From positions 1-10,832 of the forward strand of contig CAYWGS010000051.1 in the NCBI GenBank assembly GCA_964457525.1: a stretch of DNA of 10,832 nucleotides, written 5' to 3'. The notes beneath the pieces were generated by a model that saw only the letters and a list, made by a program, of their open reading frames with translations, had not been told where the DNA came from and did not search any database. Position numbers and translations under genes: made by a program. Shown here one piece after another: positions 1 through 10,832 of this stretch (its first letter is position 1; each line of letters starts with the position of its first letter). The stretch is from an uncultured Erysipelotrichaceae bacterium. Its GTDB lineage: Bacteria > Bacillota_I > Bacilli_A > Erysipelotrichales > Erysipelotrichaceae.

Positions 1-45
1 AGCGCTCCTCACTTCCAAACCCTGTTTCTCGGTGAGTGCCTATTA

Positions 46-74
46 ATAATACCAAACGAAATACCTTGTGTCAA
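46..74 (-). promoter_or_regulatory. Putative sigma-A-type promoter firing leftward out of the window
   Basis: Read on the minus strand: TTGACA (74..69), a 17-nt spacer, then TGG-TATTAT (-10 at 51..46, with an extended TG). The remaining ~45 nt to the window edge would be a 5' leader ending in GAGGAG (10..5), a likely SD. The gene it serves lies outside the window. Confidence 0.4.
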
Positions 75-145
75 CGCTTTTTAACGTGTTTTTTCGTCTT
101 TTTCATTTTATTTTTATGAGAGTTTCATTCTTCGATTAAAACACG

Positions 146-679
146 TTATTTCTGTTGATTTAATGCGATGTATTGTTTCAAATACGTTTGTATAACATCC
201 TCTTTAAATGGATATTCTGAGTTATGTACTAAATTTAGTATGCCATCTAATCCATATTCTATTACTTCCTTCAGTTCGTCTGAGTATTCCATCAACACAG
301 AATGATCTTGATATTCATCTTCATCTAAGATAAGTTCATTCCCATCAGGGAAGACTTTCACATCAAGATCGTAATCTATGTTCTTAATCGCTTCTCCATC
401 AAATAAACTCGGTGATGCAATATTACAATAGTAATAGATACCCGTTTTCCGAACCATCGCTATAATGTTATACCATCGATTCGTATAGAAGAAACATATT
501 GCTGGCTCACGAGTGAACCAACGTCTTCCATCCGCTTCAACTACCCATGTTCGATTATTCGCAACAACATAATGGTCTTCGTGTACAGCCAAGACCTTGG
601 ATGTTAACCATGTGCGATGAAGTGTCCCATCATGTTTGTAACTTTGTATTGTTATGTTTTGTCCCACTTCAAGTTTCAT
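146..679 (-). CDS. ntdP: DUF402/UPF0374-family nucleoside tri-/diphosphate phosphatase (Ntdp; B. subtilis YgaC-like)
   Basis: 177-aa ORF. An AAGGAG SD (690..685) sits 5 nt upstream of the ATG. Length and sequence blocks (QSYKHDG..HRTW, NRWYNI, IDYDLDV) match my recollection of the Ntdp/YgaC family. No homology search was run. Confidence 0.85.
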   Translation of the reverse strand: MKLEVGQNITIQSYKHDGTLHRTWLTSKVLAVHEDHYVVANNRTWVVEADGRRWFTREPAICFFYTNRWYNIIAMVRKTGIYYYCNIASPSLFDGEAIKNIDYDLDVKVFPDGNELILDEDEYQDHSVLMEYSDELKEVIEYGLDGILNLVHNSEYPFKEDVIQTYLKQYIALNQQK

Positions 680-702
680 GTTTTCTCCTTAAGTGCTTTA
701 TT

Positions 703-708
703 ATTATA
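703..708 (-). promoter_or_regulatory. Candidate -10 box (TATAAT) for ntdP
   Basis: The minus strand reads ...acggTATAATaataaagcacttAAGGAGaaaacATG. The -10 hexamer is perfect, but I see no convincing -35. Confidence 0.35.
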
Positions 709-725
709 CCGTTTTTTGCGTCATA

Positions 726-764
726 TAAAAAGAGGTCCTCTTTTAAATTTAGCGGTCCTCTTTC
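726..764 (-). terminator. Weak candidate intrinsic terminator downstream of thiT
   Basis: Minus strand: agAAAGAGGaccgctaaatttaAAAGAGgacCTCTTTTTat. The 3' arm CCTCTTT can pair with either of two upstream AAAGAGG copies (plus-strand direct repeat GGTCCTCTTT at 734..743 and 754..763). Stems are short and AT-rich, and much of the T-run is used up in the stem. Confidence 0.3.
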
Positions 765-779
765 TATATTATATATACA

Positions 780-1301
780 CTAGCGATTTGTAATTATTTT
801 TATTCGCTTATAAATGAGTGGTGTAAATATCAAACCAACAACCAATGTCATAAACATATAACCGAAATTATATACGAAAGATCCCCACCATGTAATTCCC
901 CAAAAGTACACACCTGCTACTAAGTGAATAATAAATCGAATTCCATTTACAATGATAACTCCAGTCATAATTTCAAACTTATAATGGATTGTTGGAAATA
1001 ACGACGCAAGTCCATAGAGCCCAAACGCAATAACATATTCAAGAATGAATCCAAATACATTCACAAAATAAAATGGGGCAAAGAATCCTTGTAAAGGGAG
1101 TGTGAGCAATGACACAACTACTCCTTTCTTCCAACCCAAATGATAACTTGCTAGTAGTAATACAATTGTACTAAATCCAATTGTCCCTCCATTTGGCATC
1201 TTAAAAATAGGTACTTGATTTGAGATGTAATCCAGCGCAATAAATAAAGCCACATATACACCGATCCATACCATATCCAAAACAACTCTTGATCTTTTCA
1301 T
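780..1301 (-). CDS. thiT: Thiamine transporter ThiT (ECF-transporter S component)
   Basis: 173-aa, very hydrophobic multi-pass membrane protein of the size typical of ECF S components. A GGAGGTG SD lies 7 nt upstream of the ATG. A TPP riboswitch sits immediately upstream on the same strand. Confidence 0.85.
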   Translation of the reverse strand: MKRSRVVLDMVWIGVYVALFIALDYISNQVPIFKMPNGGTIGFSTIVLLLASYHLGWKKGVVVSLLTLPLQGFFAPFYFVNVFGFILEYVIAFGLYGLASLFPTIHYKFEIMTGVIIVNGIRFIIHLVAGVYFWGITWWGSFVYNFGYMFMTLVVGLIFTPLIYKRIKIITNR

Positions 1302-1304
1302 AAA

Positions 1305-1416
1305 AAAACACCTCCATGAGGCGTAAGGATAGTGTAACTCCCTACGCTAGTCTTAACTAGATCAGGTGATGAGGGTCTGCATTCGCATCTCAGCCATTTG
1401 GCACCCCTGTTCACAG
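1305..1416 (-). promoter_or_regulatory. TPP (THI-box) riboswitch controlling thiT
   Basis: Minus strand: gtgaacaGGGGTGCcaaatgGCTGAGAtgcgaatgcagACCCtcatcACCTGATCtagtTAAgactaGCGtAGGGAgttacac. This matches the conserved TPP-aptamer core (GGGGUGC...CUGAGA...ACCC...ACCUGAUC..UAA..GCG.AGGGA). P1 is GTGAAC/GTT(A)CAC. The expression platform contains CGTAGGGA...TCCTTACG (8 bp) and CCTCatgGAGG overlapping the SD, so SD sequestration is likely. Confidence 0.9.
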
Positions 1417-1417
1417 C

Positions 1418-1445
1418 TTGATTATAGCATACTTTATGATAGAAT
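1418..1445 (+). promoter_or_regulatory. Putative sigma-A promoter for the msrC-like gene
   Basis: TTGATT (1418..1423), a 16-nt spacer, then TGa-TAGAAT (1437..1445). The AGGTGA SD at 1455..1460 and the ATG at 1466 follow. It overlaps the divergent thiT promoter. Confidence 0.45.
1421..1429 (-). promoter_or_regulatory. Extended -10 promoter (TGC-TATAAT) for the TPP riboswitch/thiT transcript
   Basis: Minus strand reads aagtaTGCTATAATcaagctGTGAAC. The predicted start falls about 7 nt downstream, right at the 5' side of riboswitch P1. The -35 is weak. Confidence 0.5.
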
Positions 1446-1465
1446 ATCGTACATAGGTGACCATT

Positions 1466-1933
1466 ATGCATGAACTAAATAAATCCGATGATTATTCATT
1501 ATTATTAAAGCAAGTCGTTGCGCTTATTGATTCAGAACCTGATCGATTAGCGAATATGGCAAATATCGCTTCTTTTATCTACCATATGATCCCTGACTTA
1601 AATTGGTCAGGATTCTATTTACTTAAAGGTGAAGATCTTGTCCTAGGTCCATTTAATGGACTTCCAGCTTGTACTCGCATCCCAATGGGCAAGGGTGTTT
1701 GTGGAACATCCGCCGCATTTAAACAAGTTTTAAATGTTGAGAACGTACATAATTTTGAGGGACACATTGCTTGCGATAGTGCAAGTAACTCCGAACTGGT
1801 TGTACCAATGATTTATCAAAATAAAGTTATTGGTGTTTTGGACATTGATTCTCCTGTCTTAGATCGATTTGATATAAAACTTGAAGAATTTGCGATTCAG
1901 GTTGTTAATGAACTAATAAAAAGATGGGATTAA
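1466..1933 (+). CDS. msrC: GAF-domain protein, free methionine-(R)-sulfoxide reductase family (MsrC/YebR/YtsP-like)
   Basis: The ORF track begins at GTG 1457, but ATG 1466 sits 5 nt after the AGGTGA SD. Family hallmarks are present: GKGVCG and HIACDSASNSELVVP. The length of about 155 aa is typical. Confidence 0.85.
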   Translation: MHELNKSDDYSLLLKQVVALIDSEPDRLANMANIASFIYHMIPDLNWSGFYLLKGEDLVLGPFNGLPACTRIPMGKGVCGTSAAFKQVLNVENVHNFEGHIACDSASNSELVVPMIYQNKVIGVLDIDSPVLDRFDIKLEEFAIQVVNELIKRWD

Positions 1934-1950
1934 TTAGTCCCATCTTTTTT
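1918..1950. terminator. Bidirectional intrinsic terminator shared by convergent msrC and ogt
   Basis: Perfect 12-bp inverted repeat AAAAAGATGGGA (1918..1929) / TCCCATCTTTTT (1938..1949) around the loop TTAATTAG. The A-run and T-run flanks give a U-tract on both strands. Both stop codons (TAA 1931..1933 on plus, TAA at 1936..1934 on minus) lie in the loop. Confidence 0.75.
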
Positions 1951-2371
1951 CATGATTTAACAATAATTCTTTATAGAATAGTCCACCAGCATATCCGGTT
2001 AATTTACCATTTTTACCAATGACTCGATGACATGGTACGATTATCCCAATTGGGTTACGGTTGCATGCACCACCTACCGCTCTTAATGCCTTAGGTTGGC
2101 CAATTCTTTGTGCTATTTGTTGATAAGAACGTGTTTCCCCATAAGGAATTTCTAATAGCGCATTCCAAACTTTTAGTTGGAATTCTGTTCCCTTAAGATG
2201 TAAAGGTAAATCAAATACTTTACGTGATCCTTTTTCATATTCTGTGAGTTGTTTTTGAATGTCACTGTTCAAATCAATTGATGCATCAATATTATCTACA
2301 AAAGACATTCCAACAATACCTTGTTCATCAAAGTTTATTTCTATTGTTTGGCCAAATAATTTTGCGAACAT
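1934..2371 (-). CDS. ogt: Methylated-DNA--protein-cysteine S-methyltransferase (Ogt/MGMT family)
   Basis: 145 aa with the active-site block NRNPIGIIVPCHRVIG (PCHRV). A GAGGAG SD lies inside the last codons of the upstream gene. The start overlaps the upstream stop as TAATG. Confidence 0.9.
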   Translation of the reverse strand: MFAKLFGQTIEINFDEQGIVGMSFVDNIDASIDLNSDIQKQLTEYEKGSRKVFDLPLHLKGTEFQLKVWNALLEIPYGETRSYQQIAQRIGQPKALRAVGGACNRNPIGIIVPCHRVIGKNGKLTGYAGGLFYKELLLNHEKRWD

Positions 2372-3171
2372 TAGAGGTTCTCCTCAAGGTAGCGTTGTGT
2401 GCTTCGTACGGCATATTCCAAATCGAAACTTTTCACAACTGAATTACCTAATAAACTCAAACTAACTTTATTTTCAAGTTCCATATTTCGACCTACTTGA
2501 TTAAAATCATTCGAATCAAAATCATGACTTAGAAATTTAACCCATTCTTCTTTAGATCCTACAACCATTCTAGATCCTTGTATGATAATTGGTCTTTTTT
2601 GACTTAGTACTTCTCCCAAATGCATTCCTGTACATGAATCGTACTCGACTCCGATGAGAAGCACTTTTGTTTTTAATTCTACCATCTTAGCGATGGGAGA
2701 TCTTAGACCAAACATATCATTAAGTGGATGGCTTTGAGTAATCCATTTTGCATGTTTACCATGAGACATCATGCTTACTTGTGGGTGGTTCGAGAAGTAT
2801 ACTGAGGGTCTTTTTTGCAAAGCTACCGCAAGTTGTCCCATTCCATATAAGTCATCAAATTTTCCTTTAAAGCTAGGTGTATTCTCTCTAATCGTTTGAT
2901 ACAATGCGACATCAATGGGCGGCTTTTGAAAGTATGCTGGTTCACTATTATCACTTGAATGGGCACTCATAACAATTGTCCCTTCAAAACCAATCGTTTC
3001 AAGAATTGCATCGAGTAGTGCATTAGCACCACCTAACATAAATCCTATTGATTTCATTGAAGCATGCACTTCTAAAACATCGCCATTTTGAATGCCGATA
3101 TTTCTTAATAATGTTTTTGCATCTTCAATTGTAATAACTGAAGAGACTTCTTTATTCTTCAATGACCCCAT
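2371..3171 (-). CDS. AAC(3)-family aminoglycoside N3-acetyltransferase-like protein (Antibiotic_NAT fold; B. subtilis YokD-like)
   Basis: 266 aa. Family-typical blocks are present: GDVLEVHASMKSIG, GGANALLDAILETIG..GTIVM, and LLIGVEYDSCTGMHLGE. The only ATG near the N-terminus is at 3171, which overlaps the upstream gene by 20 nt and has no SD. Confidence 0.8.
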   Translation of the reverse strand: MGSLKNKEVSSVITIEDAKTLLRNIGIQNGDVLEVHASMKSIGFMLGGANALLDAILETIGFEGTIVMSAHSSDNSEPAYFQKPPIDVALYQTIRENTPSFKGKFDDLYGMGQLAVALQKRPSVYFSNHPQVSMMSHGKHAKWITQSHPLNDMFGLRSPIAKMVELKTKVLLIGVEYDSCTGMHLGEVLSQKRPIIIQGSRMVVGSKEEWVKFLSHDFDSNDFNQVGRNMELENKVSLSLLGNSVVKSFDLEYAVRSTQRYLEENL

Positions 3172-3574
3172 TTTCGATTAACCGAGCTTTAAACTCATCT
3201 TCAGTGTCTGTTTGTGCGAGAGAGAATTGATCTTTAATTTTGCCTTCCTCAACTACAAATAGAATAGGGAAACTGTACGGGAAAGGTTCATTTTGATTTA
3301 GATATGTTGTAACAAGTACGTCTAAATCTTCTTGTGATTCCTTATCATATTCAATGAAATAAACAGTTGTTCCTGTTTCTTTTATAACACTTTCAACGAT
3401 ACTTCTAAAGATTTTACATGCGGAACAATAAGAAAGCCCTAAGTAAACCACAAATGTTTCATTTGCTGCAAATTTATCTGTAATTTCTGTTGGTTTAACT
3501 TGTGTTAAGCCTTGAGTACTACAGCCACTTAGGATAAGTCCTAATATCATTGTAATAAATAATAATTTCTTCAT
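3152..3574 (-). CDS. Thioredoxin-like lipoprotein with a CxxC motif
   Basis: 140 aa. The signal peptide MKKLLFITMILGLILSGC has lipobox LSGC. A CSAC redox motif sits in a thioredoxin-like context (VVYLGLSYCSACKIF). An AGGAGA SD lies upstream. Confidence 0.75.
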   Translation of the reverse strand: MKKLLFITMILGLILSGCSTQGLTQVKPTEITDKFAANETFVVYLGLSYCSACKIFRSIVESVIKETGTTVYFIEYDKESQEDLDVLVTTYLNQNEPFPYSFPILFVVEEGKIKDQFSLAQTDTEDEFKARLIENGVIEE

Positions 3575-3585
3575 TTTGTCTCCTA

Positions 3586-4047
3586 TTAAGCGTTATGAGC
3601 TATACGACTCGCAGCAGCTGCCGCAAGTGCACCAACAATATCATCTAGGAATGTATGACACATTGTTTTGTGTTCGTTGAGTGTTTTAATTATGAGTGGT
3701 TTTTCTCGATCAATGTAACCAAAATTGGTCAGTGCGATAGAACCATAAAGATTGCATATCCCATAAGCTAAAACCTCATCAATTCCATATAATGATTTGT
3801 CATTTATTAGTATATCATGTAGTACCTCATCCTGTAATGAATTCGATTCGGCTAATTTATCAAGCGTTATACCTGTAATGATTGCGTGTTGAACTTCTCG
3901 TTTACGAATCACGTTTTTTATTACTTCAATTACTTCTAACTCTTCGATTTCAGGATGATGTTGCTTTTGCAAATATAATACACATTGTGCAATGTCACTT
4001 AGACTTACACCTCTTTCTTCTAATAGATTAATACATTTATCGTACAT
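3586..4047 (-). CDS. PgpA-family (phosphatidylglycerophosphatase A-like) protein, YutG/LtrC-like
   Basis: 153 aa. The C-terminal block HTFLDDIVGALAAAAASRIAH, together with YGSIALTNFGYIDREKP, matches my recollection of the Bacillus YutG / Listeria LtrC group. A GAGGG SD lies upstream. Confidence 0.7.
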   Translation of the reverse strand: MYDKCINLLEERGVSLSDIAQCVLYLQKQHHPEIEELEVIEVIKNVIRKREVQHAIITGITLDKLAESNSLQDEVLHDILINDKSLYGIDEVLAYGICNLYGSIALTNFGYIDREKPLIIKTLNEHKTMCHTFLDDIVGALAAAAASRIAHNA

Positions 4048-4098
4048 AATTAGCCCTCATTTTATGCTTAGTTTATCTATATTCTTGTGATTTTACAA

Positions 4099-5034
4099 TT
4101 AAAAAACTTCTCTTTCTATAAAAATCTCAGATTTTATTTTCTTAAGTGTTTCAATATTAAGCGTATCCACAACCGTATCTTCTGATTGAACCGTTAAATA
4201 GGAAGCACATAATCCCCATTCACAAGCTTCAACCATTGAATATCCCTTTAAGCGATAGCTTAAGTAAACACCTAGTAACGCATCCCCAGCTCCTGTAGTA
4301 TTTACTGTATTTACCGCTTGATGTCTAAGATGATATTTGTGTAATCCATCTGTAAAGTATAACCCTTTATCACCGCATGTAAGAATCGTTTCTTTTACAC
4401 CTGATTGAACGAAGTAATCGAGTGCTTTATGAATATCTTCATCTGTTTTAATTTGAAATCCACAGACAAGCTCCGCTTCGATTATATTCGGTTTAAATAC
4501 ACTTAAATATCTTAAAATCGTCTTTGCCTTAATTGCCTTTTGACTCGAAATTGGATCCATAGCTAATTTAGCAGGAATTCTCTTACATAATGATTCTAGT
4601 ACCTCTACCGATAGGTTTGTATCAATTGAACAATAATCTTCTTGAGTCATATGATCAATTCCATGATCAAAATCATGTTCTCCTATTTGACTTAATATTT
4701 CCATATCTGCTACAGCACAGTTCATTTCACCACTGTTTTGTAGTAATGCTAAATAGGTTGCGGAGCGTTGATTTTCTTTAATCTTACTAAAATTAAGATT
4801 CATCCCAAGTTGATCACAATATTGATAGCAGAGTTGACCAAAAGCATCATCACCAAATAGTGACATCAAAACAACTTCAGTATCACATCTCACCGCATTC
4901 TCCGCAATATTTCGCGCAACTCCTCCAAACGATAATTTTATCGTCCCTGGATTTGAATCATGTAGTTTCAAGGGTTTATATGGACTTCCTACAAGATCAA
5001 CAGTAACTCCACCTATAGCATATAGTTTCGGCAT
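4099..5034 (-). CDS. PfkB-family carbohydrate/nucleoside kinase (pseudouridine kinase PsuK/YeiC-like)
   Basis: 311 aa. N-terminal GGVARNIAEN and C-terminal NTTGAGDA motifs are PfkB hallmarks, and GGVxRNIAxN is typical of the YeiC/PsuK subgroup. An AAGGAG SD lies 5 nt upstream. Confidence 0.75.
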   Translation of the reverse strand: MPKLYAIGGVTVDLVGSPYKPLKLHDSNPGTIKLSFGGVARNIAENAVRCDTEVVLMSLFGDDAFGQLCYQYCDQLGMNLNFSKIKENQRSATYLALLQNSGEMNCAVADMEILSQIGEHDFDHGIDHMTQEDYCSIDTNLSVEVLESLCKRIPAKLAMDPISSQKAIKAKTILRYLSVFKPNIIEAELVCGFQIKTDEDIHKALDYFVQSGVKETILTCGDKGLYFTDGLHKYHLRHQAVNTVNTTGAGDALLGVYLSYRLKGYSMVEACEWGLCASYLTVQSEDTVVDTLNIETLKKIKSEIFIEREVF

Positions 5035-5045
5035 ATTTTCTCCTT

Positions 5046-5071
5046 AGAAAAGCGTGGATTTCTCCACGCTT
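5046..5071 (-). terminator. Intrinsic terminator after the EF-G-like gene
   Basis: Minus strand: tAAGCGTGGAgaaaTCCACGCTTttct. The stem is 9 bp and GC-rich with a GAAA loop and a short T-tract. The stem begins within the TAA stop of the EF-G-like gene and ends 1 nt before the kinase SD, so it is probably leaky. Confidence 0.65.
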
Positions 5072-7151
5072 ATTCGTCTTCATCATCATCTAAGTTACGA
5101 GCCGCATGTGCTATAACTTTATCAGCGATTGGTTGAGGCGCTATTTCATAACGATCAAATCGTTGAGTATAAGTACCGATACCTTGAGTAAAGGATCTTA
5201 ACTCTGTTGAATAACGCATTACTTCAGACATAGGGACTTCTGCGGAGACGACTTGTTCACCTTCTTCATTGAGATCCATACCTAGAATCAAACCACGACG
5301 TTTATTGAAATCACCAATAATTGTACCAGTAAATTCTTCTGGCGCAACAACATCTAGTCGAACAATTGGTTCAAGTAGTACTGGTTTCGCTTGTGGCATA
5401 CCTGCTTTATAAGCAAGCTTAGCAGCCATTTTAAATGCAATTTCCTTGGAATCAACTTCATGATATTTACCATCAACTAAAGTCGCCTTAACACCAACGA
5501 CACGATAGCCAGCTAATACCCCTTTGTTCATCGCTTCTCTTAAACCAGCTTCAACTGCAGGGAAGTATTGTCGAGGAACTGCTCCACCGAATACTTTTTC
5601 TTCAAACACCATATCAAGTGAATCACATGGTTCAAAGGTAATGAATACATCCCCGAATTGTCCAGCACCACCCGATTGTTTCTTATGTTTACCTTCAACA
5701 GTAACGGTAGAACGAATGGTTTCACGATATGGAATACGCGGTTCTTTTAAATCTACATCTACTTTGTATTTAGTTTTAAGTTTATTGACAACTACATCAA
5801 GGTGCTGATCACCAAGACCATAAACAACGAGTTCATTAGTCTCAGTATTTTTAACCATCTTGAAGGATGGATCTTCTTCTTCAACACGTTGTAGTGAAGT
5901 ACTCATTTTATCTTCATCTAGTTTACTCTTTGGCCAAATACTCATCGCCAATAAACCTTCTGGGAATACAATTGGTTGATGTGTCACTAACTTAGCTTTT
6001 GTCGCTAATGTATCGTTGGTTTGAGTGTATTGTAATTTAACGATTGCGCCTAAATCACCTGTAAATAACTTACCAACAGCGAGTTGATGTTTACCCTTAA
6101 TAACAAATACTTGACTTACTTTTTCAGCTTTATCTTTTTGAACATTATAGACTTGAGTATCACTCGTTAAAGTACCACTCATTACTTTGATAAAGGAAAT
6201 CCTTCCTACAAATGGGTCAATAATTGTCTTATATACTAGCGCACTGAACGCTTCTGATTCATCTGTACGTAACGATACTATCTCACCATTCGTATCTTTT
6301 GCTTCTACAGTACCAAGTTCACCATAGGATGGGAAATATTCCCCAATTAAGTCCATAAGTCTTTCGATACCTAACATCTTAATTGCACTACCCGCATAAA
6401 CAGGTCTAATTTCACCAGAACGAACACCAAGTCTTACACCTTGAATGAGTTCCGCTTCAGTGAACACTTCACCTGAGAAGAATTTTTCCATCAATTCATC
6501 ACATGTCATCGCAATCGATTCACTGATTTGAGCTAAGTAATCATCTACAACCGGTTTTAACTCAGCTGGAACTTCCTTCGCATTTTCACGATCATTTAAA
6601 TACCATGCTTTGTTACGTAAGATATTTACAGATCCAACGATATTCCCATTTTCTACAATTGGTATTTCAAATGGAATAATTGTTTTTCCAAATTTCTCTC
6701 TTAATTGTGTATAGACTTTATCGAAGCTTGTATTTTCTTCATCTAATTTATTAATGAAGAAGATGGTAGGAATCTTACGTTTAGACACTTGTTTAAACGC
6801 TCTTAATGTACCGGTTTGAATACCGTCTTTACCATCTACTACAATAAGCGCATTATCCGCAACGGCTAACCCAGACTCTAATTCTTGTGCATAGTCGAAG
6901 TATCCTGGAGTATCGATAAAATTAATCTTATGATCCTTCCATTCAATTGGGGCAACAGATGTAAATATGGATAATCCACGTTTTACTTCTTCAGCATCAT
7001 AATCTAAAACAGACGTCCCATCGAGGGTTTTACCCATACGATCGGTTGCTTTGGTAAAGTAGAGCATCGATTCAACAATCGTCGTTTTACCGGAACCAGA
7101 GTGTCCAAGTAAACAAATATTCTTCACTTCATTCGCTGCATAATCTTTCAT
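5070..7151 (-). CDS. Elongation factor G paralogue (EF-G II / EF-G-2 type translational GTPase)
   Basis: 693 aa with full five-domain EF-G collinearity. Motifs seen: G1 GHSGSGKT, switch I RGLSI, G3 DTPGY, G4 NKLD, KKQSGGAGQFGDV, and the domain IV block DGKYHEVDSKEIAFKMAA. It is not in an rpsL-rpsG-fusA-tuf context. AGGGGA SD upstream. Confidence 0.9.
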   Translation of the reverse strand: MKDYAANEVKNICLLGHSGSGKTTIVESMLYFTKATDRMGKTLDGTSVLDYDAEEVKRGLSIFTSVAPIEWKDHKINFIDTPGYFDYAQELESGLAVADNALIVVDGKDGIQTGTLRAFKQVSKRKIPTIFFINKLDEENTSFDKVYTQLREKFGKTIIPFEIPIVENGNIVGSVNILRNKAWYLNDRENAKEVPAELKPVVDDYLAQISESIAMTCDELMEKFFSGEVFTEAELIQGVRLGVRSGEIRPVYAGSAIKMLGIERLMDLIGEYFPSYGELGTVEAKDTNGEIVSLRTDESEAFSALVYKTIIDPFVGRISFIKVMSGTLTSDTQVYNVQKDKAEKVSQVFVIKGKHQLAVGKLFTGDLGAIVKLQYTQTNDTLATKAKLVTHQPIVFPEGLLAMSIWPKSKLDEDKMSTSLQRVEEEDPSFKMVKNTETNELVVYGLGDQHLDVVVNKLKTKYKVDVDLKEPRIPYRETIRSTVTVEGKHKKQSGGAGQFGDVFITFEPCDSLDMVFEEKVFGGAVPRQYFPAVEAGLREAMNKGVLAGYRVVGVKATLVDGKYHEVDSKEIAFKMAAKLAYKAGMPQAKPVLLEPIVRLDVVAPEEFTGTIIGDFNKRRGLILGMDLNEEGEQVVSAEVPMSEVMRYSTELRSFTQGIGTYTQRFDRYEIAPQPIADKVIAHAARNLDDDEDE

Positions 7152-7163
7152 GACATAATTCCC

Positions 7164-7832
7164 CTATTTCAGTAACGGTTTAAGTTCCGTTAAACAATCA
7201 GTTCTAACATAATGAATTGCTTTATTACCTTCGGAATCAATAAGCTCTTTATTTGCACCATGATCAAGTAGGTATTGAACAAGCTCTGCATAACCACTGT
7301 AAGCAGCACGCATTAGAGCTGTGCAACCATTCTTGTCTTGTTCATTAATTTCAACGTTCTTATCGACCAATAGTTTAATAACATCGTATCTAAATGCTAA
7401 GCACGCTTCCATTAATACTGTACGACCCATTTCGTCTTTCGCGTTTACGTTTGCACCTTTTTTAAGAATTAAATCCACCACTTCATTGTGTCCTAAGAAC
7501 CCAGCACGCATTAATGCTGTACGGCCCTTAATGTCTTGAACATTCACATCAGCACCAGCATCCACTAACATCTTCACGATTTCGAAATGACCTTTTTTAG
7601 CAGCACCCATAAGTGCTGTCTTACCATTGTTGTCTTTCGCATTCACATCTGCACCGTGATCAATTAGATAACGCACGATTTTTTCATGCCCACGTTTTGC
7701 GGTGCGCATTAAAGCAGTTCTTGCTTCCGCATTACGAACATTGACGTCCGCTCCTTGGTTTAGTGCTGCGACGACTTTTTGAAAGTCACCACTTGCAGCC
7801 GCTTCCCAGAATAATTGATTTGTTTGATCCAT
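7164..7832 (-). CDS. Ankyrin-repeat protein (six 33-aa ANK modules), cytoplasmic
   Basis: The ORF track starts at TTG 7856, which has no SD. ATG 7832 is preceded by AAGGAGG with a 7-nt spacing. The repeat pattern G.TALM.A...GH.E.V..L...GADVNA.D recurs every 33 residues. There is no signal peptide or TM segment. Confidence 0.9.
   Translation of the reverse strand: MDQTNQLFWEAAASGDFQKVVAALNQGADVNVRNAEARTALMRTAKRGHEKIVRYLIDHGADVNAKDNNGKTALMGAAKKGHFEIVKMLVDAGADVNVQDIKGRTALMRAGFLGHNEVVDLILKKGANVNAKDEMGRTVLMEACLAFRYDVIKLLVDKNVEINEQDKNGCTALMRAAYSGYAELVQYLLDHGANKELIDSEGNKAIHYVRTDCLTELKPLLK
7182..7820 (-). repeat. Tandem 99-nt (33-codon) ankyrin modules within the ANK gene
   Basis: Protein-level periodicity: the T of TALM/TVLM falls at track residues 47, 80, 113, 146 and 179, with a degenerate cap at about 212. 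The DNA copies are diverged. Confidence 0.7.
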
Positions 7833-7862
7833 ATTGGTTCCTCCTTGGTTCTTCAAACAAAG

Positions 7863-7896
7863 AAAATAAAAAAGATGGACACACGTGACCCATCTT
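7863..7896 (-). terminator. Intrinsic terminator between the leader ORF and the ANK/EF-G-like operon (attenuator candidate)
   Basis: Minus strand: ttttTAAGATGGgtcacgtgtgtCCATCTTTTTTATTTTc. The stem AAGATGG (7896..7890) / CCATCTT (7878..7872) can gain two G-U pairs and is followed by TTTTTTATTTT. On the plus strand it is followed by an A-run, so it is minus-specific. Confidence 0.65.
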
Positions 7897-7990
7897 AAAA
7901 ATCATTCATAAAGCATTCACAGCCTAAGACATCAACCTCGGTTGTTTGATTGTCTTGAGTGACAAGAAAAACAATTTCTACCCTTGTCAT
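7895..7990 (-). CDS. 31-codon leader ORF (MTRVEIVFLVTQDNQTTEVDVLGCECFMNDF), putative regulatory leader peptide
   Basis: It is too short to appear in the ORF track. An AAAGAGGTG SD (8005..7997) lies 6 nt upstream of ATG 7990. The TAA stop (7897..7895) overlaps the first bases of the terminator 5' arm. The ORF lies between a promoter-like element and the terminator. Confidence 0.45.
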   Translation of the reverse strand: MTRVEIVFLVTQDNQTTEVDVLGCECFMNDF

Positions 7991-8022
7991 TATGAACACC
8001 TCTTTCCAAACTTTATAACTCC

Positions 8023-8050
8023 ATTGTAACCAATTTATTTTTTATTGCAA
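8023..8050 (-). promoter_or_regulatory. Putative sigma-A promoter for the leader/ANK/EF-G-like transcript
   Basis: Minus strand: TTGCAA (8050..8045), a 16-nt AT-rich spacer, then TACAAT (8028..8023). The predicted start near 8016 gives a leader of about 184 nt. Confidence 0.5.
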
Positions 8051-8070
8051 GCGTATACACTGAAAACTTT

Positions 8071-9009
8071 TTATTGCTTTGTTTCAGGATAAACATACTC
8101 CGCAAACTCAATATATTCTTCTGCTGTTAAGGTCTGATCTGTACTTTCATCAAACTGATGTTTACCATCTTGAAGGAATTGTTTTTTATCCAAAAGATAA
8201 TAAGAATATAGAACTCTTCCATCTCGATCAGGAATTGGATCATTGAATGTCGTGTCAATAAACTTCCAGTTTAAACCATCATAAACCAGATTCCATGCAT
8301 GAAACATACTGATTGAAGAAACCATTAGTGATGGAATATCTGCATCATGCGCCATTACATTAAAGGCTCTTGAGTATCCACTACATACCGCTGTATTGTA
8401 ATCAAAAACTCCTACAGCTGAAAAGGAAGGATGTTTGACAGATGCATTTAAAACAATTTCTAAAACACTTGTATCATATTCTGTATTAAGAACTATTTTA
8501 TCGTGTATTGACTTAATCTTCTCACGGATTCCCATATCTGTCGTGATGATAGAATCGTTCCATTCACTAGCACTATTAAAAATACGCTTATAGTCTGTAT
8601 CGTTAGGCTTGATTTCCAACGAATACAATGTCATCAAGACCACATCTTTTCGCGAGTAAGGAATTTCAGTAATCACGATATTAAACGTATATGGGATAAC
8701 ACTCTCGATATATGAAAATGTTCGATCAATCGATATTTCGTTATCACTCACATAATAGACTTTTAGTTGATCTTCTCTTTCTTGTAGAATCGATAATAGA
8801 GCGAGTTCTTTTTCATTTTCGATTCGATAAACTTCATCTTCATCGACATAACTTGGTAATCCAGCGAGTATAAATTGTCTATTTTCACCCGATATTCCTT
8901 TTATGATGATTGATTCATCCACTTCAGGACGCGAAGAAAAAATCGAACATGCGCCTAATTGAAGAATTATTAGTAAAATAAGTATCCGTTTTGTATAGTT
9001 TATCATCAT
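8071..9009 (-). CDS. Transglutaminase-like (Cys-His-Asp) lipoprotein, putative cysteine peptidase
   Basis: 312 aa. The signal peptide has lipobox LGAC (MMINYTKRILILLIILQLGAC). The C-terminal half carries the transglutaminase-core signature: AVCSGYSRAF (Cys), FHAWNLV (His), and WKFIDTT (Asp). The N-terminal ~190 aa match nothing I recognise. Confidence 0.75.
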   Translation of the reverse strand: MMINYTKRILILLIILQLGACSIFSSRPEVDESIIIKGISGENRQFILAGLPSYVDEDEVYRIENEKELALLSILQEREDQLKVYYVSDNEISIDRTFSYIESVIPYTFNIVITEIPYSRKDVVLMTLYSLEIKPNDTDYKRIFNSASEWNDSIITTDMGIREKIKSIHDKIVLNTEYDTSVLEIVLNASVKHPSFSAVGVFDYNTAVCSGYSRAFNVMAHDADIPSLMVSSISMFHAWNLVYDGLNWKFIDTTFNDPIPDRDGRVLYSYYLLDKKQFLQDGKHQFDESTDQTLTAEEYIEFAEYVYPETKQ

Positions 9010-9013
9010 TGTG

Positions 9014-9022
9014 ATTATACCA
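9014..9022 (-). promoter_or_regulatory. Extended -10 promoter (TGG-TATAAT) abutting the start codon of the transglutaminase-like gene
   Basis: Minus strand reads catGGTATAATcacaATGATGata. Only 4 nt separate the -10 from the first ATG (7 nt from the second), and no SD is present. Confidence 0.4.
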
Positions 9023-9078
9023 TGTCATGCTTTTATTTTGCGGTTTCACGCGTTAAAATAGAACAAGAGGTAATTATC

Positions 9079-10773
9079 ATGAAATTTAATGAATATGTCT
9101 ATCAAAGACCCGATTATGATACGGTCAAAACAGAGTATTTAGATTTACTTGACGGATTCAAGAACTCAGTCGATGGAGCTGAACAAAGAGCTTTTTTTAA
9201 GAAGATTAATCAACTAAGACTAAAAATTGAATCGATGTCTACATTATCGAGCATTCGCCACTCAATCAATACTCAAGATCCTTTCTATGAAACAGAAAAT
9301 GAATATTGGGATAATCAAGGTCCGTTGTACGCTGAATTAAATAATCAATTTTATCAAGCTGTACTTAGTTCTGAGTTCTTAGAGGATTTAAAGGATGTTT
9401 ATCCGATTACATTCTTTCAATTAGCTGAGAATGCACTTAAAACATTTAAACCAGAAATCATTGAATTACTACAGGAAGAAAACAAGTTAGTTTCTGAGTA
9501 CTATAAGCTCATGGCAAGTGCTCAAATTGAGTTTGATGGTGGTGTTTATACCTTAAGTCAAATGACCCCATTTACTCAAAATCCTAATCGTGATACACGT
9601 AAACGCGCTTTTGAAGCACGTACATCTTTCTTAATTCAAAACGAAGCTAATCTTGATAAGATTTATGATGATCTTGTAAAAGTAAGAACTAAGATTGCGC
9701 ATGAACTCGGGTTTGAAAATTACATTCCTTTAGGCTATTTAAGAATGAATCGCCTAGATTATGATGCTAAGATGGTTGCGTTCTATCGTGAACAAGTACT
9801 TGAATATGTTGTTCCGCTTGCACAAAAACTCTATAAGAAACAAGCTTCTCGCTTAGACTTAGATAAACTTGCTTATTATGATATTAACTTTGACTTCAAG
9901 TCAGGTAATCCTACACCTAAGGCAAGTCCAGAAGAAATGGTACAAATCGCAAAAGAAATGTATCACGAACTAAGTCCTGAAACAGGCGAGTTCTTTGATT
10001 TCATGGTTGAACATGATCTTCTTGACTTAGAATCTAAGAAAGGTAAACAAGGCGGAGGATATTGTACCTATATCCCTGAGTATTCTTCTCCATTCATCTT
10101 CTCAAATTTTAATGCGACTGCAGGTGACGTTGAAGTTCTAACGCATGAAGCTGGACATGCATTCCAAGTCTATCAATCAAGATGGGTTGATGTTCCTGAA
10201 TGTGCATTCCCAACTTATGAAAGTTGTGAAATACACTCAATAAGTATGGAGTATCTCACATGGCCATGGATGGATCGTTTCTTCAAAGAAGATACGGATA
10301 AATTCAAATATGCACACATGTCAGATAATGTTAAGTTCTTACCGTATGGTGTATCCGTTGACCATTTCCAACATGAAGTATACGCTAATCCAAATATGAC
10401 TCCTGATGAAAGAAAAGCAATCTGGAGAAAACTTGAAAAGATGTATGTTCCACACAAAGACTATACAGAAAATGAATTCTTAGATAAGGGAACATTCTGG
10501 TATAATCAAGGTCATATTTTCTCCACACCGTTCTATTACATTGACTATACCTTAGCAGGTGTATGTGCAATGCAGTTCTGGAAACGTGCAGCTCAAAATG
10601 ATCCAAATACATTTAAAGATTACTTAAAAATCTGTAATATCGGAGGTACAAAATCATTTGTTAACATCGTTAAAGATGCGAACTTAATTTCACCTTTCGA
10701 AAAGGAATGTATTCCTTCTATTATTAAAGATGTCGAAGAATTCCTATATTCAATCGACGATACTAAACTATAA
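9079..10773 (+). CDS. M3-family oligoendopeptidase (PepF-like, M3B zinc metallopeptidase)
   Basis: The ORF track starts at 9022, but ATG 9079 follows an AGAGG SD by 8 nt and gives the family-typical N-terminus MKFNEYVYQRPDY. The zinc site is THEAGHAF (HEXXH) with a downstream Glu in SCEIHS. The product is about 564 aa. Confidence 0.88.
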   Translation: MKFNEYVYQRPDYDTVKTEYLDLLDGFKNSVDGAEQRAFFKKINQLRLKIESMSTLSSIRHSINTQDPFYETENEYWDNQGPLYAELNNQFYQAVLSSEFLEDLKDVYPITFFQLAENALKTFKPEIIELLQEENKLVSEYYKLMASAQIEFDGGVYTLSQMTPFTQNPNRDTRKRAFEARTSFLIQNEANLDKIYDDLVKVRTKIAHELGFENYIPLGYLRMNRLDYDAKMVAFYREQVLEYVVPLAQKLYKKQASRLDLDKLAYYDINFDFKSGNPTPKASPEEMVQIAKEMYHELSPETGEFFDFMVEHDLLDLESKKGKQGGGYCTYIPEYSSPFIFSNFNATAGDVEVLTHEAGHAFQVYQSRWVDVPECAFPTYESCEIHSISMEYLTWPWMDRFFKEDTDKFKYAHMSDNVKFLPYGVSVDHFQHEVYANPNMTPDERKAIWRKLEKMYVPHKDYTENEFLDKGTFWYNQGHIFSTPFYYIDYTLAGVCAMQFWKRAAQNDPNTFKDYLKICNIGGTKSFVNIVKDANLISPFEKECIPSIIKDVEEFLYSIDDTKL

Positions 10774-10832
10774 GAATAATAGAGGCTGTAACGAAATAGA
10801 ATAATTAATTCGTTGAAAAAACAATTAATCAT

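Follow-up and report, generated by a model that had tools for sequence, protein, structure and literature searches.

An ankyrin-repeat protein gene coupled to an EFG II-type elongation factor G paralog, with a candidate leader attenuator, in Erysipelotrichaceae

Introduction

Paralogs of elongation factor G (EF-G) belonging to the EFG II group are the most widespread duplicated translation factors in bacteria, and their role is debated; proposals range from slow, GTP-independent translocation in Bacteroides to ribosome trapping in mycobacteria. Here, we describe an EFG II gene from an uncultured Erysipelotrichaceae bacterium that lies directly downstream of a gene for an ankyrin-repeat (ANK) protein. 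Both are encoded in a 10,832-nucleotide (nt) stretch of DNA (assembly GCA_964457525.1, contig CAYWGS010000051.1, positions 1 to 10,832 of the forward strand), the whole of which is referred to below as the window. As a discrete and conserved bicistronic unit, the ANK/EFG II pair possesses a promoter, a leader, and a terminator of its own, and the arrangement recurs in 62 independent loci, 27 from genomes and 35 from metagenome contigs. The view that the two genes constitute a dedicated module is well supported by these gene comparisons. On balance, we also favor the broader picture in which the module is equipped with a leader attenuator and is specific to one branch of the Erysipelotrichaceae.

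The closest described relatives of the window EF-G paralog are the EF-G2 proteins of Mycobacterium smegmatis and Bacteroides thetaiotaomicron and EF-G-2 of Thermus thermophilus, with which it shares a five-domain fold, a glycine in the P-loop, a relaxed G2 motif containing serine, and a location outside the str operon. The catalytic histidine of canonical EF-G is replaced by tyrosine in both the window protein and M. smegmatis EF-G2, and by serine in the structurally characterized chain 7uvp/8dmf. Unlike the described EF-G2 systems, the window system features an apparently dedicated partner gene upstream and a putative attenuator built around a leader open reading frame (ORF).

Two proteins offer partial analogies for the ANK partner. 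FusB and FusC of staphylococci are EF-G-binding proteins that release EF-G from ribosomes stalled by fusidic acid. Their likeness to the ANK protein is one of functional analogy only, between small cytoplasmic proteins with a 1:1 binding to EF-G, here proposed, that alters its ribosome cycle. The folds are unrelated; FusB targets the housekeeping EF-G, is usually horizontally acquired, and is not co-transcribed with its target. Yar1, a yeast cytoplasmic protein of about 200 residues made entirely of ankyrin repeats, is a chaperone of ribosomal protein uS3 and thus sets a precedent for an ankyrin protein devoted to a single translation component. It differs in being eukaryotic, in having a ribosomal protein rather than a GTPase as its client, and in lacking an operon context, and its likeness to the ANK protein is that of the repeat fold. 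An earlier reading of the window from its letters alone (the sequence-only reading) had noted no described ANK/EF-G pairing. Our full-text literature searches (ankyrin with elongation factor G and operon, or with Erysipelothrix) agree with it in that they returned nothing relevant to such a pairing, and within the literature searched the ANK partner is without a described counterpart.

Finally, the leader invites comparison with attenuators in which translation of a short ORF controls termination. In the Escherichia coli pyrBI leader and the rph-pyrE attenuator, a ribosome positioned over the 5' arm of the terminator hairpin prevents termination. The tet(M) orf12 leader of Tn916 has the same order of promoter, short ORF, and terminator, and an occlusion mechanism has been proposed for it (bioRxiv 10.1101/2021.03.24.436905). 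The window leader resembles all three in placing a promoter, a short ORF, and a terminator before its structural genes, and the product of tet(M) is likewise an EF-G-like ribosomal GTPase. The window leader differs from them in that its sequence is unrelated and its stop codon keeps a fixed position directly at the base of the stem.

Organization of the ANK/EFG II unit

All features of the unit are encoded on the minus strand of the window. The ANK gene (7164..7832) specifies 222 amino acids from an ATG at 7832 to a TAG at 7166..7164, and is preceded by a Shine-Dalgarno (SD) sequence, AAGGAGG, at 7846..7840. The EF-G paralog gene (5070..7151) specifies 693 amino acids from an ATG at 7151 to a TAA at 5072..5070. 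Between them, the coupling junction (7152..7166) comprises the ANK TAG, a GGGGA SD, and a gap of 12 nt to the EF-G ATG. It reads TAGGGGAATTATGTCATG, that is, AAA TAG GGGAATTATGTC ATG, so that the purine-rich EF-G SD abuts the ANK stop codon. The sequence-only reading had described just this spacing and an SD at the stop codon. The description stands, and the tight junction proves to be conserved: the two genes are separated by -1 to 18 nt in all 27 genome loci, and a combined stop and SD motif, aaaTAGGAG, recurs at their junctions, the commonest form being a TAG followed directly by GGAG. In one locus (L024; CALVGN010000041.1, about 5133-6001), which is without the leader short ORF (sORF) and terminator described below, the ANK stop and EF-G start overlap as TAAATG.

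In the window, the ANK and EF-G genes share a reading frame and are split by one TAG and four codons. A fusion protein produced by stop-codon read-through was considered and rejected; it is unlikely because the frame relation is not conserved, with relations 0, 1, and 2 all occurring among lineages.

Downstream, a terminator-like hairpin (5044..5071) consists of AAGCGTGGA-GAAA-TCCACGCTT at 5071..5050 followed by TTCT, and overlaps the TAA of the EF-G paralog. A hairpin of -12 to -31 kcal/mol immediately 3' of the EFG II stop codon is likewise present in most of 28 other loci examined. Because the window hairpin has only a short U-tract (TTCT) and the start of pfkB lies 36 nt further on, some read-through into pfkB is possible in this organism. 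The neighbors of the pair include genes for a transglutaminase-like protein, an M3 peptidase, PfkB, and PgpA, among others; rpsL, rpsG, and tuf are not nearby. Comparison of the hairpins, and of the leaders discussed below, bears out the earlier claim that the pair stands as a unit apart, served by its own promoter and leader upstream and its own terminator downstream.

Linkage of ANK and EFG II across loci

To place the window in context, one genome per GTDB species was scanned with the EF-G paralog, which yielded 80 loci (handles beginning with L). These comprise 27 Erysipelotrichaceae-type loci with upstream DNA, one further Erysipelotrichaceae-type locus (L004) in which the contig begins inside ANK, and 52 loci from Clostridia and other Bacillota. 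ANK was sought in each by tblastn with the window protein across a 6-kb flank. An ANK ortholog of 49-96% identity lies immediately 5' of EFG II in 27 of the 27 Erysipelotrichaceae-type loci, and the truncated ANK of L004 is also next to EFG II. In the other 52 loci, all from Clostridia and other Bacillota and with an EF-G identity of 43-53%, no ANK gene lies upstream of EFG II within that flank, and the Clostridia genes sampled are also without the leader.

The reverse survey scanned metagenome contigs at the DNA level with ANK, counting matches of at least 59% identity as orthologs and those of 48% or below as generic ankyrin matches. Every ortholog (35/35) is followed by EFG II, 10-28 nt downstream, whereas no generic match (0/45) is. 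A protein-level search with ANK was dominated by generic ankyrin proteins and surfaced no orthologs. Across all 62 loci, the ANK ortholog is 222-223 amino acids long. The neighborhood survey of EF-G paralog homologs that accompanied the original suggestion of a two-gene module is thus strongly positive in genomes and metagenomes alike, and the adjacency, far from being confined to one strain, holds across a clade of Erysipelotrichaceae while its neighbors turn over. The pair is kept where all other neighboring genes differ, as in L020, L022, L023 (Absicoccus intestinalis), L024, L031, and L056 (Candidatus Merdibacter), and the same arrangement is found in the cultured Anaerorhabdus furcosa.

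Among the members of the clade that carries the pair are lineages of the human gut (L102, L108, L115) and organisms abundant in anaerobic digesters. One metagenome contig (L081, RRZU011504771.1) encodes ANK and EFG II proteins 100% identical to those of the window. The window organism appears to be common in sampled environments, since its exact ANK protein is recorded in 290 assembly-collection blocks.

Three observations concern individual loci or groups of loci. A lake/sediment metagenome contig (L098:4687-5400) features an in-frame TAA at EFG II codon 205 (...DIVAS*CDQIIEAV...) downstream of an intact ANK, either a pseudogene or an assembly error. Many EFG II genes of the Clostridia loci (L025-L043, L075) share a near-invariant ribosome-binding region (AAGGGGGAAT...ATG). 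Many of these Clostridia loci also share a divergent gene pair, encoding about 341 and 365 amino acids, upstream of EFG II.

Identity of the EF-G paralog

The window EF-G paralog has all five EF-G domains at full length (Pfam GTP_EFTU, EF-G_D2, EFG_III, EFG_IV, EFG_C). Its P-loop, G1, is GHSGSGKT, where canonical EF-G has alanine in place of the first-position glycine; G2 is RGLSI (KRGLSIF) rather than RGITI; G3 is DTPGY, with tyrosine in place of the catalytic histidine of DTPGH; and G4 is NKLD. The domain IV loops QSGGAGQFG and YHEVDS are similar to the canonical decoding-centre loops. The closest G domain in the PDB is chain 7uvp/8dmf, deposited as 'TetQ', with DCPGS and YGYSV at the matching sites; we take this chain to be B. 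thetaiotaomicron EF-G2.

EFG II proteins are recognized by glycine rather than alanine at position 16, serine for threonine in G2, and a gene location outside the str operon (Margus et al. 2011, PMC3150367), and an RxxSI form of G2 marks the 'Clostridia' sub-subgroup of EFG II (PMC3150367). The window protein has the EF-G domains, the P-loop glycine, RGLSI, and a location outside rpsL-rpsG-fusA-tuf. At position 25, which is leucine in EFG II and threonine in EFG I, it has isoleucine (GKTTI), a hydrophobic residue as leucine is but not the same one, with the register set by eye. Among NCBIfam models, it passes the NF009381 subfamily cut-off (862.7 bits against 583) and does not reach the TIGR00484 EF-G equivalog (634.9 against 659.4). 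The curated EF-G2 models are likewise not reached (NF009377, 558.9 against 890; NF058620 for Bacteroidota EF-G2, 556 against 1000), and the resemblance to these EF-G2 proteins is at subfamily level only. By its diagnostic residues and model scores, the window gene is an EFG II-type EF-G paralog, as the sequence-only reading had proposed.

Retention of the nucleotide-binding motifs together with replacement of the catalytic histidine by tyrosine suggests that the EFG II paralog probably binds GTP and the ribosome and hydrolyzes GTP inefficiently, if at all. In M. smegmatis EF-G1, the corresponding substitution, H88Y, nearly abolishes ribosome-dependent GTPase activity (bioRxiv 10.64898/2026.05.25.727771). 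EF-G2 of the same species carries a natural tyrosine at the H88 site and traps post-translocation ribosomes under stress (bioRxiv 10.64898/2026.05.25.727771). Among the 80 genome loci, the 74 with a readable G3 motif have tyrosine, phenylalanine, leucine, aspartate, or alanine at the catalytic position, and never histidine.

These features also bear on whether the gene could be the organism's sole housekeeping EF-G, with ANK an unrelated gene upstream. PGAP-type annotation does name such proteins 'elongation factor G', and the NF009381 cut-off is passed. We nevertheless consider this explanation extremely unlikely, given that the catalytic histidine is replaced in every family member read, the TIGR00484 score falls under its cut-off, G1 and G2 carry the EFG II signature, and rpsL, rpsG, and tuf are not nearby. 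In addition, EFG II never occurred without a further EF-G in the 2011 survey, and a lone EF-G gene was invariably EFG I (PMC3150367). The lost histidine, the sub-threshold TIGR00484 score, the non-str context, and that survey (Margus et al. 2011) together strongly suggest a separate canonical fusA in the same genome. Within the 165 fetched loci, and for those loci only, no protein with DTPGH or other canonical translational GTPase was found.

The ANK protein and its constraint

The ANK protein comprises six 33-residue ankyrin repeats and a partial C-terminal cap in our own repeat parse, and Pfam recognizes it as Ank_2 (3.9e-50) as well as Ank_4 and Ank. Its N-terminus (MDQTNQLFWEAAASGD...) has no hydrophobic signal sequence, and the protein is predicted to be cytoplasmic. 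The ORF, the Pfam matches, and the repeat parse are all in keeping with the initial description of a six-repeat protein that lacks a signal peptide and ends at TAG 7166..7164. Scans of ANK against Pfam and NCBIfam, which returned ankyrin models, one weak match to a domain of unknown function, and marginal NCBIfam matches, gave no FusB-family fold or sequence.

The two proteins evolve in step. ANK identity tracks EFG II identity with r = 0.99 in both data sets, over ranges of 49-95% for ANK and 53-94% for EFG II. In close comparisons, the nonsynonymous rate (dN) is 0.033-0.035 for ANK and 0.040-0.059 for EFG II, against 0.20-0.24 for the flanking transglutaminase-like and PfkB genes. Ratios of dN to the synonymous rate (dS) are 0.02-0.04, 0.04-0.05, and 0.07-0.16 for ANK, EFG II, and the neighboring genes, respectively; dS is near saturation in these comparisons and the ratios are approximate.

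Across the six parsed repeats, positions on the concave face score higher for conservation (6.8, on a 10-point scale) than those on the convex face (5.0), and the conserved residues include a basic and hydrophobic groove formed by R38, K46, R47, K71, K79, K80, R104, F112, L113, R137, and Y178. The pattern is as expected for a protein with one conserved macromolecular partner.

A partnership between ANK and EFG II is suggested because the gene linkage is strict in both directions, translation is apparently coupled, and evolutionary constraint is equal. Could the adjacency instead be historical, with ANK inserted once upstream of an ancestral EFG II and functionally unconnected to it? The restriction of the pairing to one clade would fit a single insertion. 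However, in divergent genera the other neighbors have been reshuffled while the pair, the length of 222-223 amino acids, the junction, and the leader were retained; purifying selection on ANK is three to five times that on flanking genes; and the metagenome scan found no ANK ortholog away from EFG II. We regard a purely historical adjacency as very improbable.

Direct binding of ANK to EFG II, for its part, is only slightly favored by the comparative data, and three points weigh against it. The 24 clade-specific EFG II substitutions are scattered over all domains and single out no interface patch. The acidic C-terminal tail of EFG II, tried as an ANK docking site that might fit into the basic groove, was rejected, as the tail is also present in Clostridia proteins that have no ANK. 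Moreover, Clostridia EFG II is without ANK, at least within 6 kb, and the pairing is clade-restricted.

Some of these points would equally suit an arrangement in which ANK and EFG II belong to the same stress response and ANK binds some other acidic or nucleic-acid target, for example the L7/L12 stalk, another ribosomal protein, ribosomal RNA, or transfer RNA. In such a case, the operon would do no more than co-express two factors with separate actions. The groove is strongly basic (R38, K46, R47, K71, K79, K80, R104) and would accommodate RNA or acidic ribosomal proteins as readily; EFG II has no clade-specific surface patch; and Clostridia EFG II works without ANK. Set against this are the two-way linkage in 62 of 62 loci, gene junctions of -1 to 18 nt in which the SD adjoins the stop codon, and the near-equal evolutionary rates. 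Linkage, coupling, and rates of this kind are typical of subunits of one complex, as in the correlation between operon order and complex assembly. A different target for ANK is therefore, in our estimation, rather unlikely.

A role in anti-phage defense or antibiotic resistance was also considered and rejected. PADLOC gave only generic ANK-repeat and P-loop matches for the two proteins and no specific defense model, and the Tet models are far under their cut-offs (NF012153 tet_protect, 314.1 bits against 775; likewise Tet(M), Tet(Q), and Otr(A)).

The leader and its putative attenuator

The sequence-only reading correctly placed a leader upstream of the pair; its description was incomplete in that it missed an sORF ending at a terminator. 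A consensus scan locates the operon promoter at 8023..8050, with a -35 element TTGCAA at 8050..8045, a 16-nt spacer, and a -10 element TACAAT at 8028..8023. In an alignment of the upstream region from 17 lineages, TACAAT is nearly invariant across genera. The leader must have a promoter of its own, because the upstream gene is divergent in L009, L014, and L023. The sORF (7895..7990) comprises 31 codons (MTRVEIVFLVTQDNQTTEVDVLGCECFMNDF) and a TAA, with an SD, AGAGGTG, 8 nt 5' of its ATG at 7990. A terminator scan places the putative attenuator at 7863..7896, where the stem AAGATGGGT/GTCCATCTT (7896..7872) is followed by TTTTATTTT; base two of the leader stop codon is where the 5' arm of the stem starts. 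This hairpin is not the terminator of the upstream gene, because that gene is divergent in several loci. Further downstream, between the attenuator T-run and the ANK SD, a GTTTGAA(C) motif (7852..7858; alignments A1 and A3) is kept in most genera though the length and sequence of the spacer vary, and has no fixed frame with ANK. In most loci, the spacing between the terminator and the ANK ATG is 30-47 nt; a few have about 55 nt. This leaves no room for a separate promoter, so transcription of ANK and EFG II must depend on read-through.

We compared 49 distinct leader sequences, 39 of which yielded both an sORF and a terminator in a simple scan and 10 of which were inspected by eye. An sORF of 19-43 codons with an SD and ATG is present in 48 of the 49. 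In 29 of the 39 automatically detected leaders, the first base of its stop codon immediately precedes the stem (offset -1). Nine of the remaining 10 share the same layout, and the stop there is located either at the base of the 5' arm or within that arm or the loop. All three stop codons, TAA, TGA, and TAG, are used. The peptide sequence is barely conserved though the ORF itself is kept, indels among close relatives are multiples of three, and gene callers have annotated the sORF in public contigs. The terminator stem is itself conserved as a structure, with 89.9% of cells paired, compensatory changes at five of eight pairs, and a covariation score that none of 500 shuffles reached. In L023, L100, L101, L108, and L112, the layout has been rebuilt with unrelated hairpin sequences. 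Rfam returned no match to the leader, which is a candidate new cis-regulatory family.

We consider it probable, from this conserved geometry, that the leader is a ribosome-position attenuator. A ribosome with a stop codon in its A site covers about 10-12 nt beyond it, which here amounts to the whole 5' arm. A ribosome at the leader stop would thereby block formation of the terminator and allow RNA polymerase to read on, whereas transcription would end if no ribosome occupied the stop at that moment. Expression of the operon would thus be set by the place of the leading ribosome relative to the polymerase, and the leader could read out how fast the polymerase moves, how fast the ribosome elongates, or how long it dwells at the stop codon. 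Candidate signals are the nucleotide pool, the speed of translation, termination, or an antibiotic.

The evidence is not uniformly favorable to this attenuator. No consistent antiterminator pairing emerged when 13 leaders were folded with and without the terminator 3' arm; one leader in 49, that of L024, is missing entirely; and the pairing of the SD with the 3' part of the sORF, described next, beats shuffled sequences in only 19 of 39 leaders (z below -1.5). Absence of an antiterminator in these leaders leads us to favor an occlusion type of attenuator, as in pyrBI, pyrE, and tet(M), over the trp/erm type, from which window-type leaders differ in having no alternative antiterminator hairpin that we could find.

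Base-pairing between the leader SD and start region (window 7895..8016; L001-L115, L161) and the 3' part of the sORF is predicted for many lineages. The pairing sequences differ among genera (GAGGUG..., ACGGGG:GCCCGU, GAAGGGAG:CUCUUUUC, GGUGGUAAUA:UGUUAUUACC), and the folding is suggestive of an SD-sequestering helix. Such a helix could restrict leader translation to a co-transcriptional window. It would also suit a leader that is not a sensor at all, one in which the sORF is untranslated and the hairpin serves as a leaky insulator or affects RNA stability, or in which a structured RNA is bound by a protein, perhaps with ANK or EFG II as autoregulator. The lack of an antiterminator points the same way, and for tet(M) one study found the leader-peptide model unsupported by toeprinting (bioRxiv 10.1101/2021.03.24.436905). 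We give this explanation little credence, however, as the stop stays at the foot of the stem while switching among TAA, TGA, and TAG, the ATG and SD are kept despite near-complete divergence of the peptide, indels come in threes, and the layout reappears with unrelated hairpins in the five loci named above. A second ORF, running from an AUG or GUG in the terminator 5' arm through the hairpin to the ANK start, was examined and rejected; its frames and end points are inconsistent among lineages.

A model for the ANK/EFG II module

Taking the ribosome-position attenuator as the starting point, transcripts that read through would yield the 222-residue ANK protein, and translational coupling would ensure that EFG II is made in fixed proportion to it. 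EFG II would then associate with ribosomes and either translocate them or hold them in place while hydrolyzing little or no GTP, by analogy with the EF-G2 proteins of M. smegmatis and B. thetaiotaomicron. ANK would most likely act as a stoichiometric, dedicated partner of EFG II through its conserved basic and hydrophobic concave groove, and might govern how this factor, itself deficient in hydrolysis, joins or leaves the ribosome, as a holdase, an anti-factor, or a FusB-like release aid.

A more ambitious version, which we offer only tentatively, makes ANK an obligate cofactor for the cycling of a hydrolysis-dead EF-G, with the leader gauging the duration or promptness of ribosome occupancy at a stop codon and the whole forming a closed feedback module that senses and corrects a translation defect. 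ANK would in that case keep EFG II off ribosomes until needed or remove it after translocation, replacing the release that GTPase activity normally drives.

If ANK is indeed an invariant and equally constrained partner, it would provide a handle on the limiting step of the EFG II cycle, that is, binding or release. The leader, with its stop codon at the terminator, may likewise point to the cellular condition that the module answers. As a cultured system, Anaerorhabdus furcosa makes the function of EFG II experimentally approachable.

Other features of the window

Outside the unit, a thiamine pyrophosphate (TPP) riboswitch (Rfam RF00059, 65.1 bits, E = 2.8e-11) is encoded at 1322..1418 on the minus strand, directly 5' of a ThiT/YuaJ-type transporter gene (780..1301). 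The combination of riboswitch and thiamine transporter is an ordinary, known arrangement.

A gene of the aminoglycoside 3-N-acetyltransferase family (2371..3171, minus strand; Pfam Antibiotic_NAT, 4.7e-54) lies 2 kb downstream of the operon on the same strand. There is a 20-nt overlap with the lipoprotein gene before it, and its final base is also the one at which an MGMT gene starts. In closer relatives, though not in distant ones, it is syntenic with the ANK/EFG II pair.

Finally, the M3 peptidase ORF (9022..10773, plus strand; 583 amino acids) probably starts at an internal methionine, Met 20 (MKFNEY...); public gene calls give 564 amino acids.

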